Assembly (NCBI GenBank): GCA_050250895.1 | Contig: JBFWNU010000003.1 | Span: forward strand, 682,109-746,108 | Length of the DNA: 64,000 nt | Direction of reading: 5' to 3' | Source of the DNA: Vulcanimicrobiota bacterium | Lineage (GTDB): Bacteria; Vulcanimicrobiota; Xenobia; Xenobiales; JADMJV01 | Shown: piece by piece, positions 9,932 to 50,224 of the stretch | Layout: every line of letters begins with the position of its first letter | How positions within the stretch are numbered: position 1 is the first letter of the stretch | Notes under the pieces: generated by a model | Database searches by the model: none | The model's input: the letters and a program-made list of their open reading frames with translations, nothing else | What the model was told of the DNA's origin: nothing | Translations under genes and position numbers: made by a program

Positions 9932-9963
9932 TTCAGGGATTTTTCAGCCTGGCCGCTTAGGAT
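9932..9963 (+). promoter_or_regulatory. Direct-repeat promoter TTCAG-N6-TTCAG-N10-TAGGAT
   Basis: Same geometry found at 28651-28682, 36810-36841 and 50193-50224. Confidence 0.65.
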
Positions 9964-9979
9964 GAGCGTGGAGGTCCGT

Positions 9980-10621
9980 ATGAAGCTCGTCAATGTACCC
10001 ACCCAGGCCGTAGTGACCGAGAGACGCTGTCTCGGCACCATTCCTCGTTCTCAGTATGTCGAGTCGAAAGCCTTCGTGCCCGACCGCGCTCGGATCAGCG
10101 ATGGGGACCGTGAAGAGGTCTTTGGCGAGGTGCCCATTCGCGATGACCGCGGGGCGCCGGTTCTTCAAGACACTGTGGCCGCGCTCGACGTGTCCCGGCC
10201 CAGCCTGGGCACTGCTGCCGTGTTCTCGACCCTCACCGGAGTCGTGGCCGGCGGGTTGGTCGGAATGCTCAAATACGGCGCTCTCAGCCCCGAAGGAATG
10301 ATCGTGGGTGCCATCACCGGGGGCGTGAGTGGGGTAGCCCTGGCGGCTGCCAGCAAACCGTCGGTGGCTTTTCGCGATCAAGCGATCACTGAGCCTCGCC
10401 TGACCGGTTATACCACCATCGCCACCGATGCGGCTTTCGTGCCCACCCGGCCTCGCGGCGGCTGGCCCGAGGGTGGCGGGACCCAGTTCACCTTTATTCC
10501 CACGATTCACGACGAGAAGATTGGTAGCCTGCCGGAAGCCTACGTAGCTCAAAGCGTGCCGGAGTGGTTGCGAGGAGCCGGCCCGGCGGTGCTTGCCGCC
10601 GGGGCTGCCCTGTTCGTCTAA
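9980..10621 (+). CDS. Hypothetical membrane protein with glycine-zipper-like segments
   Basis: GGAGG SD before ATG 9980; hydrophobic GVVAGGLVG and GAITGGVSG segments. Confidence 0.7.
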   Translation: MKLVNVPTQAVVTERRCLGTIPRSQYVESKAFVPDRARISDGDREEVFGEVPIRDDRGAPVLQDTVAALDVSRPSLGTAAVFSTLTGVVAGGLVGMLKYGALSPEGMIVGAITGGVSGVALAAASKPSVAFRDQAITEPRLTGYTTIATDAAFVPTRPRGGWPEGGGTQFTFIPTIHDEKIGSLPEAYVAQSVPEWLRGAGPAVLAAGAALFV

Positions 10622-50179: not shown

Positions 50180-50192
50180 CCTCGCCTTCGAT

Positions 50193-50224
50193 TTAAGGGT
50201 TCTGCAAGACCGCGGTTCTATTCT
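50193..50224 (+). promoter_or_regulatory. Direct-repeat promoter TTAAG-N6-GCAAG-N10-TATTCT
   Basis: Same spacing as the three other sites; second half-site is degenerate. Confidence 0.55.

Follow-up and report, generated by a model that had tools for sequence, protein, structure and literature searches.

A dispersed direct-repeat promoter class and its putative regulon of mostly lineage-specific proteins in a large genome of the Vulcanimicrobiota

The window analyzed here, a 64,000-nucleotide (nt) stretch of contig JBFWNU010000003.1 (C3:682109-746108), belongs to the genome of a Vulcanimicrobiota bacterium (GenBank assembly GCA_050250895.1) that comprises 9.50 Mb in 17 contigs, with 63% G+C and an estimated completeness of 99.64%. 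Four sites in the window carry two pentameric direct repeats followed after 10 nt by a −10 hexamer of the form TAnnnT, and each reads toward a start codon (Table 1). Reading of the window sequence confirmed the letters, strands, and positions that a preliminary description had assigned to all four, and its claim that the start codons lie 16 to 42 nt downstream of the −10 also held, the measured distances being 16, 42, 17, and 27 nt for promoters 1 to 4, respectively. Exact copies of TTCAG-N6-TTCAG occur twice in the window against an expectation of 0.15, and none of 100 shuffled versions contained two or more. Two sequences previously listed as weaker variants were rejected using the matrix described below: TTCAC-N6-TCAAC before a lipase gene (9906..9921, minus strand) scored −3.9, and TTCAA-N6-TTCAG (2617..2632, plus strand) scored 1.9 and has no −10 at the required spacing.

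Neither Pfam nor NCBIfam holds a family for the 213-amino-acid (aa) product encoded behind promoter 1 or for the 196-aa product behind promoter 3, and the latter had no homologue at an E value of ≤1e−10 in the 22 relatives searched. The lipid desaturase-domain protein behind promoter 2 carries, within an N-terminal extension of ∼100 aa, a full copy (MQV...DTVSID) of the leader described below, which aligns with the other leaders. The clostripain-like region of the protein behind promoter 4 matched Peptidase_C11 with an E value of 1e−4 and 22.4 bits, under the 25.8-bit cut-off. By matrix score, promoters 1 to 3 rank as strong members of the genome-wide motif described below. Promoter 4 is borderline and appears to be backed by sites at orthologues of its gene. 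Such orthologues were detected in 10 of the 14 genomes searched from the organism's own family, in all four from another family within the order (hereafter the second family), and in none of four from a third, small-genome family of that order. In the second family, all four orthologues have sites, scoring 22.6 to 30.1, and a paralogue in the same genome has a site scoring 31.3; backing from the organism's own family (g2) is mixed, with a site scoring above 16 in one of five g2 genomes.

Table 1. Positions of the repeat promoters, the genes behind them, and other features discussed in the text. Positions in the window are counted from its first letter; those preceded by C and a number refer to contigs of the assembly, and for the leader proteins they are counted along the strand shown.
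Feature	Position	Strand	Description
Promoter 1	window 9930..9965	+	TTCAG-N6-TTCAG-N10-TAGGAT, 9932-9963; repeats 9932-9936 and 9943-9947; −10 TAGGAT 9958-9963; matrix score 32.4
Promoter 1 gene	window 9980..10621	+	213-aa orphan; N terminus MKLVNVP; glycine-zipper-like hydrophobic stretch
Promoter 2	window 28649..28684	−	ATCAG-N6-TTAAG-N10-TAAATT, 28682-28651; ATCAG 28682-28678, TTAAG 28671-28667; −10 TAAATT 28656-28651; matrix score 25.6
Promoter 2 gene	window 27688..28608	−	306-aa lipid desaturase-domain protein; PF10520, E value 3e−45, residues 100-274
Promoter 3	window 36808..36843	−	TTCAG-N6-TTCAG-N10-TAAGTT, 36841-36810; repeats 36841-36837 and 36830-36826; −10 TAAGTT 36815-36810; matrix score 31.3
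Promoter 3 gene	window 36202..36792	−	196-aa soluble orphan
Promoter 4 (degenerate)	window 50191..50226	+	TTAAG-N6-GCAAG-N10-TATTCT, 50193-50224; TTAAG 50193-50197, GCAAG 50204-50208; −10 TATTCT 50219-50224; matrix score 17.2
Promoter 4 gene	window 50252..53287	+	1,011-aa protein; N terminus MQVSNIH; weak clostripain-like region
Flagellar loci	C1:572-594 kb, C1:120-130 kb, C1:545-547 kb versus C1:1458-1477 kb		two systems
FlhA C-domain genes	C6:529401-530381, C1:2013982-2014740, C1:2475431-2476438, C7:121919-122905, C1:1126976-1127566, C7:117253-118194, C1:2008860-2009774, C8:31716-32150		eight free-standing genes
Leader protein without repeat promoter	C3 290797	−	example
Leader protein without repeat promoter	C1 3556198	+	example
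Leader protein without repeat promoter	C1 3210429	−	example
Orphan FliF/YscJ-family gene	C2:554951-556563		527-aa ring protein; repeat promoter score 18.5

To assess the motif across the whole genome, a 36-nt matrix was built iteratively from the genome's own sites, with reversed sequence and locally shuffled sequence serving as controls. The resulting consensus is t-TTCAG-nnTtnT-TTCAG-N10-TAgnCT; the half-site starts are 11 nt apart, both half-sites are equally conserved, and the third half-site base is A instead of C in 17 to 20% of sites. Sites with a score above 20 numbered 334 in the real sequence, 3 in the reversed, and 1 in the shuffled; the respective counts were 381, 25, and 17 above a score of 16, and 419, 67, and 51 above 14. 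As the distribution of scores is nearly bimodal, approximately 330 to 370 sites can be taken as genuine. Exact TTCAG-N6-TTCAG occurs 74 times in the genome and is followed at exactly 10 nt by TAnnnT in 51 cases, and the exact 32-nt pattern is present in 52 copies. Sites were found on every contig larger than 50 kb at densities of 2.4 to 6.5 per 100 kb, and 10 pairs are arranged divergently, back to back. The open reading frames (ORFs) of the putative regulon have a GC content of 63.9%, compared with 62.9% for the genome. A mobile or otherwise repeated DNA element was considered and rejected, since there is no conservation outside the motif, the downstream proteins fall into 307 clusters, and the sites are spread over the contigs. 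The earlier proposal of a dispersed, oriented promoter class made up of 11-bp repeats, a 10-nt gap, and TAnnnT is upheld. The scale proposed for it, a few co-induced genes, was too small; some 330 to 420 promoters are present, and the class is kept in several related families.

Searches with the exact 32-nt pattern identified 3 to 46 copies in each of 15 genomes of the organism's own family, 25 to 56 copies in each of five genomes of the second family, and 7 to 9 copies in both genomes of a family from another order of the class. In the small-genome family, only 2 of 19 genomes had the pattern, with at most two copies. Most of the remaining phylum had zero to two copies, the exception being a group of 7- to 8-Mb genomes elsewhere in the phylum, where each of the five genomes searched had one to seven. 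The reversed pattern, used as a control, was found zero to one time per genome.

Two properties had escaped the preliminary description: about 40% of the promoters appear to be leaderless, and the products share an N-terminal signature. With respect to the former, 138 of 381 sites have the start codon of an ORF that is 60 aa or longer at exactly 7 nt past the final T of the −10, compared with 461 of 20,000 random TAnnnT hexamers; when distances of 7 or 8 nt are counted together, the figures are 172 of 381 and 886 of 20,000. This places the start codon where transcription normally begins, and judging from this geometry, ∼36 to 45% of the transcripts should be leaderless. A look-up of sequencing runs for window positions 27600 to 37500 listed no RNA run and four DNA runs, each with a small share of the stretch. 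A genome-wide collection of leaderless candidates, comprising every TAnnnT-N6-RTG before a good ORF (n = 442), contained 102 with the repeats and 330 without them. In the 330 repeat-less promoters, the −10 is of the same TAnnnT type and is extended (tGc-TAnnnT, G occupying −2 in 63%), and the −35 position corresponding to a 17-bp spacer shows a weak T.G. Leaderless mRNAs thus appear to be common in this organism. No TTGACA-like −35 element was identified in the matrix of the repeat promoters, and given that the same kind of −10 serves repeat-less promoters with a weak −35, the repeats seem to take the place of the −35 element.

Proteins encoded downstream of the sites tend to begin with M-[RKQILV]-[IV]-x-[PGAS], and acidic residues are rare in their first dozen positions. 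A stretch rich in Pro, Ala, Ser, and Arg follows, and a subset carries D-x-V-x-L-S near residues 28 to 35; an alignment of 34 such leaders gave M-x-I/V-x-P...R...D-x-V-x-L-S. The leaderless genes, which were defined alike with and without repeats, provided the control for this signature. Among them, I or V occupies residue 3 in 65 of the 102 genes with repeats and in 61 of the 330 without (p = 3e−17), and the full short signature is present in 51 of 102 and 31 of 330, respectively (p = 2e−17). No D or E occurs in residues 2 to 12 in 78 of 102 compared with 146 of 330, and residues 2 to 30 contain 10.3% Pro and 8.0% Leu behind repeat promoters, compared with 6.5% and 13.5% behind repeat-less ones. 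A Sec-like hydrophobic stretch was found in 7 of 102 and 105 of 330, respectively. Repeat-driven genes with mRNA leaders of 11 to 60 nt retain I or V at residue 3 in 43 to 46% of cases, which argues that the signature is a property of the proteins rather than of the DNA at the transcription start. Beyond the set of 34 leaders used for training, ORFs scoring 10 to 20 bits against the leader profile have a repeat promoter in 38 of 140 cases, compared with 467 of 35,654 ORFs overall. Genomes of the second family and of the family from another order have the same kind of N termini behind their sites.

The 375 downstream ORFs form 307 BLAST clusters, 273 of which are singletons. Pfam was searched with 84 proteins, namely, those of 80 genes drawn at random from the 189 with a well-defined start and those of the four window genes, and 55 of the 84 had no Pfam family at an E value of ≤1e−4. 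The association with orphan, signal-less genes, which the preliminary description had raised for testing, is supported, as the sites stand before orphan proteins that lack Sec signals. NCBIfam models, sorting-signal models included, gave no match above the model cut-off for any of 58 proteins, and 55 of these had no match at all. Hydrolases in the sample included an esterase, a GDSL lipase, two GDPD phosphodiesterases, an Endonuclease I, and a GH68/32 protein, and peptidases were represented by C26, M48 (twice), and M90 members; three giant InhA-MAM proteins were present as well. Propellers of the PQQ, WD40, and PD40 types, two PilZ proteins, two lipid desaturases, TauE, DUF4405, RNase II, a flavin reductase, an acyl carrier protein (ACP)-like protein, and a LOG-like protein were also identified; none of the 84 products was a housekeeping protein. 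A gene for a patatin phospholipase lies behind another repeat site. Where known domains are present, they usually begin after an N-terminal extension of ∼50 to 190 aa, and the leader resembles a tag appended to domains that are otherwise ordinary. Such a common N-terminal leader suggests a common fate of the products.

Taken together, the repeats mark a genuine and conserved class of promoters, which very probably works through an activator and specifies a very large regulon of tagged, mostly unknown proteins. What has been observed is the motif with its copy number, spacing, orientation, and conservation, as well as its statistical link to the N-terminal signature; co-regulation, the type of activator, the sites of transcription initiation, and export are inferred. 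Two direct repeats with a period of ∼11 bp, or one helical turn, are present, and the proximal repeat lies a fixed short distance from the −10, in the −35 region, with no canonical −35. Direct repeats in place of the −35 are the textbook arrangement for class II activation by the PhoB/OmpR family, and the measured period of 11 bp and distance of 10 nt to the −10 agree with the comparison to these activators drawn in the preliminary description. We consider it probable, though well short of certain, that the class is lineage-wide and activator dependent, that it governs a regulon of tagged, mostly lineage-specific proteins, and that the activator is of the OmpR/PhoB kind, the most likely candidate. 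In the mechanism proposed, two tTTCAG half-sites one helical turn apart, at approximately −38 and −27, would stand in place of the −35 and be bound by a tandem head-to-tail dimer of a winged-helix activator. This protein would recruit the RNA polymerase holoenzyme that also serves the other TAnnnT promoters of the genome, and ∼40% of the transcripts would begin at the start codon. The products would mainly be fast-evolving, lineage-specific proteins (hydrolases, lipases, nucleases, proteases, glycine-zipper membrane proteins, and many orphans) with a tendency to carry the common leader instead of a Sec signal.

Repeats of similar geometry have been described in other systems. The SARP/AfsR (Streptomyces antibiotic regulatory protein) activators of Streptomyces bind heptamer direct repeats with an 11-bp period, ∼8 bp from a −10 that lacks a −35. 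The period fits, whereas the spacing here is 10 nt, the conserved core is 5 to 6 nt, and only weak Trans_reg_C matches were found in large proteins. The CtrA box of the Alphaproteobacteria, TTAA-N7-TTAAC, is read by a global OmpR-family regulator with flagellar targets and has the same period and the same TT.A core; the phylum and the preferred half-site differ, and a scan of seven response regulators with NCBIfam gave nothing above cut-off, no CtrA equivalog among them. The most conserved of the response regulators scanned resembles MtrA/YycF.

The genome has 19 OmpR-type response regulator genes, as well as partial, weak Trans_reg_C matches in ∼10 large proteins. The only Trans_reg_C match on contig C3, at 282098-282322, is outside the window, and no OmpR-type regulator gene is present within it, in line with the earlier suggestion that the activator is encoded elsewhere. 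Only 1 of the 375 downstream ORFs has a receiver domain. The nearest case to an autoregulated gene is a half-site promoter (score, 15.9) before an operon for a membrane protein, a response regulator, and a kinase (C3:280679). A phyletic filter left three response regulators with reciprocal best hits in the second family and in the family from another order but not in two genomes of the small-genome family. One of these candidates is located 3′ of the repeat-driven patatin gene, an arrangement that is not kept in G018 or G040. A separate observation was made at C5:12894-13033, where divergent promoters (TTGAC-N6-TTGAC-N10-TAGAGT/TACATT) precede an operon for a KdpE-like response regulator and a kinase. 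Given its own TTGAC-N6-TTGAC repeats, the KdpE-like regulator probably reads a different word; the arrangement implies that other regulators use the same architecture, which fits with an activator of the OmpR family.

Several results weigh against this reading of the promoters and their regulon. No site scoring above 16 lies directly before any of the 29 Trans_reg_C matches, the phyletic candidates are weak and lack conserved synteny, and overall neither autoregulation, synteny, nor phyletic filtering tied any of the 19 OmpR-type genes to the motif. When up to one mismatch was allowed in the small-genome family, the larger genomes yielded 10 versus 0 and 8 versus 0 copies relative to the control, and the smallest yielded 1 versus 2. 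This modest excess indicates that the regulon shrinks with genome size rather than being cleanly absent, and it also weakens the phyletic filter. The coupling of promoter and leader is statistical, not strict: only 67 of the 375 downstream ORFs score at least 10 bits against the profile of 34 leaders, and among the non-training ORFs at 20 bits or more, none of nine has a repeat promoter within 150 nt.

Other explanations for the repeats were weighed against an OmpR/PhoB-type activator. It is improbable that an alternative sigma factor, or a protein associated with sigma, recognizes them, with the TTCAG words forming an unusual bipartite upstream element. Genes for sigma-28-like and extracytoplasmic function (ECF)-like sigma factors are present in the second flagellar cluster described below, a group-3-like sigma gene lies in a pilus cluster, and large secretion or developmental regulons are often sigma driven in known systems. 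Against this, the repeats are equally conserved and 11 bp apart, and the −10 is of the type found in the 330 repeat-less leaderless promoters. They also end 10 and 21 nt from the −10; since sigma-70-family spacers measure 15 to 19 nt, neither distance could be used by region 4, which disfavors a direct sigma-70-family reading. It is very unlikely that a repressor or nucleoid-type silencer uses the motif as an operator to hold accessory genes off. The genes are lineage specific and fast evolving, as illustrated by the promoter 3 gene and its lack of homologues, and such genes are often silenced; the fixed 10-nt spacing, strict orientation, and absence of a −35 are, on the other hand, needs of a polymerase-contacting activator and not of a repressor.

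The pho box consists of two direct repeats 11 bp apart that end 10 bp before the −10 and replace the −35, and the promoters recognized by PhoB in Escherichia coli therefore share repeat period, 10-bp spacing, and −35 replacement with those described here. They differ in that the half-site here is TTCAG and not a heptamer, the promoters number hundreds rather than a dozen, and ∼40% are predicted to be leaderless. This identical geometry, along with the sampled GDPD proteins, Endonuclease I, and esterase and the patatin phospholipase behind another site, could be taken to mean that the repeats are the pho box of the lineage and that the hydrolases scavenge phosphate, but we regard such a starvation regulon as quite unlikely. 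No match to PhoU (PF01895) or to the PstS type (PF12849) was found in this 99.64%-complete genome, each of them being present in 13 of 14 control genomes, and the lack of these canonical anchor genes weakens the case; most members are, moreover, orphans with a common leader, which scavenging alone does not explain. Hardly credible is the notion that the repeats represent no more than the form that general housekeeping promoters take in this lineage, with no regulon behind them. Hundreds of copies over all large contigs would be expected of such a form, yet only 102 of the 442 leaderless candidates carry the repeats, the others having a different upstream architecture. Furthermore, none was found in the two flagellar clusters, the 84 sampled products included no housekeeping protein, and the products have a common signature.

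To our knowledge, nothing is known of gene regulation in this uncultured phylum, and a search of the literature on Eremiobacterota/Xenobia, regulons and type III secretion included, found no paper on the motif. Novelty appears to lie in the word, in a regulon that takes in ∼5% of all genes, in the large proportion of leaderless promoters, in the leader, and in the host lineage. For ∼5% of the genes in a 9.5-Mb genome, most of them unannotated, the 32-nt signature would predict both transcription starts and membership, and hundreds of hypothetical proteins could thereby be grouped into one testable unit. It may also supply future genetic work on the group with a ready-made design for an inducible promoter, and it suggests that promoters both leaderless and activator dependent can make up a major class in bacteria other than actinobacteria and Deinococcus. 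Should the leader serve as a tag for export or sorting, secreted proteins of these bacteria could be found in a new way. Such a tag would bear on the predatory lifestyle suggested for large-genome members of the same phylum (PMC9259500).

As to what the leader might do, type III secretion substrates carry an uncleaved N-terminal signal that is not hydrophobic, has few acidic residues, and is rich in Ser and Pro. The leaders resemble this signal, in features of composition only. A tentative extension of the above, which we think has a modest chance of being correct, is that the repeat promoters mark the substrates of a flagellum-derived type III export system in the large-genome lineages of this candidate phylum; several hundred proteins, most of them orphans, would be under one response regulator and have FlgM-like leaders. 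If true, no larger co-regulated arsenal of secreted proteins would be known in any bacterium, and it might serve predation or other cell-cell interaction.

Other machines were sought in the genome, and no contractile sheath (PF04984), TssC (PF05943), or VirB4 (PF03135) was identified. An injectisome-type secretin was likewise not found, the two secretins present being those of a type II secretion system and a type IV pilus. Two flagellar-type export systems are encoded. The first is compactly clustered, and its ortholog in the small-genome family is the only such system there (FlhA, 74 to 77% identical). The second is divergent and dispersed over several loci, and its FlhA is 44% identical to that of the first; it has its own FlhB, FliQ-R fusion, FliP, FliI, 899-aa FliK, FlgD/E, FliF/G/H, FliM/N, MotAB, FliD, FliS, and two sigma factors. 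It is present in the organism's own family, the second family, and the family from another order; none of the small-genome family's genomes that were searched yielded it. By elimination of the other machines and by this co-occurrence, flagellar type III export would be the best candidate route, and it is the one preferred here.

Other observations speak against export. Neither flagellar cluster contains a repeat site scoring above 14, and the flagellar systems and the regulon are therefore not visibly co-regulated. Membrane-like segments occur in 122 of 333 downstream ORFs, TauE, DUF4405, and the lipid desaturases are polytopic membrane proteins, and the PilZ proteins (two), the ACP-like protein, the flavin reductase, and RNase II have typically cytoplasmic domains. 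In addition, occurrence together with the second flagellar system follows genome size and is based on very few independent evolutionary events.

FlgM, the anti-sigma-28 factor, is a known flagellar export substrate. In the only FlgM of this genome (94 aa), the N terminus reads M-T-V-S-G and S-S-V-E-V-S is located around residue 40; the protein can be aligned in register with the leaders. No statistical test backed a relationship between the two: hhalign gave a probability of 0.14%, and no leader matched PF04316 even at an E value of ≤10. A genome search with PF04316 returned only the one FlgM gene above the cut-off. The likeness to FlgM is a resemblance only.

Promoter motifs have marked secreted proteins in other bacteria. 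The hrp-box effectors of Pseudomonas syringae, which depend on HrpL, are recognized as a large set by a promoter motif together with an N-terminal signature, and their N termini have an aliphatic residue at position 3 or 4, no acidic residue in the first dozen, and a Ser/Pro-rich composition. The same two-layer pattern is seen here; the hrp box, in contrast, is read by an ECF sigma factor and the machine is an injectisome, whereas the present promoters have an activator architecture and only flagellar-type systems were found. The tandem TTAA-type repeat recognized by PmrA has a period of 11 bp and keeps a constant distance to the −10, and this motif has been used to find effectors. In Legionella and Coxiella, this regulator of the OmpR family reportedly raises the expression of a secretion system and of some of its effectors (PMC7104363). 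The Dot/Icm machine concerned is of type IV with C-terminal signals, unlike the N-terminal tag here, where no VirB4 was found; there are ∼5 to 10 times more promoters here, and the secretion genes themselves are without a site. Parallels in route are the Cia/Fed proteins of Campylobacter jejuni and the Lysobacter enzymogenes pathway resembling a type III secretion system of the flagellar kind (FT3SS), in which nonflagellar proteins with an N-terminal signal reportedly pass through the flagellar gate (PMC2764114, PMC5223770, PMC7688988). Those sets range from a few proteins to some tens, expressed along with flagellar genes, whereas here hundreds, under their own promoter class, would be exported.

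Eight further genes encode only the cytoplasmic C-terminal domain of FlhA/SctV, most of them without a membrane segment, and in one an XRE-type helix-turn-helix is located at the N terminus. They were considered as regulon members and rejected, as they are not repeat driven. FHIPEP matches number two or three in the small-genome family and 3 to 19 in the motif-rich families; the small-genome relatives have one extra copy of the FlhA C domain, and other relatives have up to 19 FHIPEP matches. We know of no description of such an expansion of free-standing FlhA C domains. Were the leader proteins exported by a flagellar-type system, these docking domains would serve as sorting or holding platforms.

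At least nine proteins with a clear full leader (M-x-I...D-x-V-x-L-S, 20 to 30 bits) have no repeat promoter within 300 nt (for examples, see Table 1), which implies that the leader family is wider than the regulon.

Within the window, the desaturase-domain gene behind promoter 2 heads a same-strand run (18246-28608, minus strand) that forms a MoxR/DUF58/transglutaminase-type module. The genes that follow it encode a 226-aa orphan, a DUF58 protein, a transglutaminase-like protein, a MoxR AAA ATPase, and TPR and HEAT-repeat proteins. Upstream of promoter 4, the gene for a 2,701-aa TPR-rich giant protein (42074-50179, plus strand) stops 14 nt before the first repeat. Elsewhere in the genome, a third, orphan ring protein of the FliF/YscJ family lies behind a repeat promoter, and a PAS-SpoIIE phosphatase gene is located 3′ of it.

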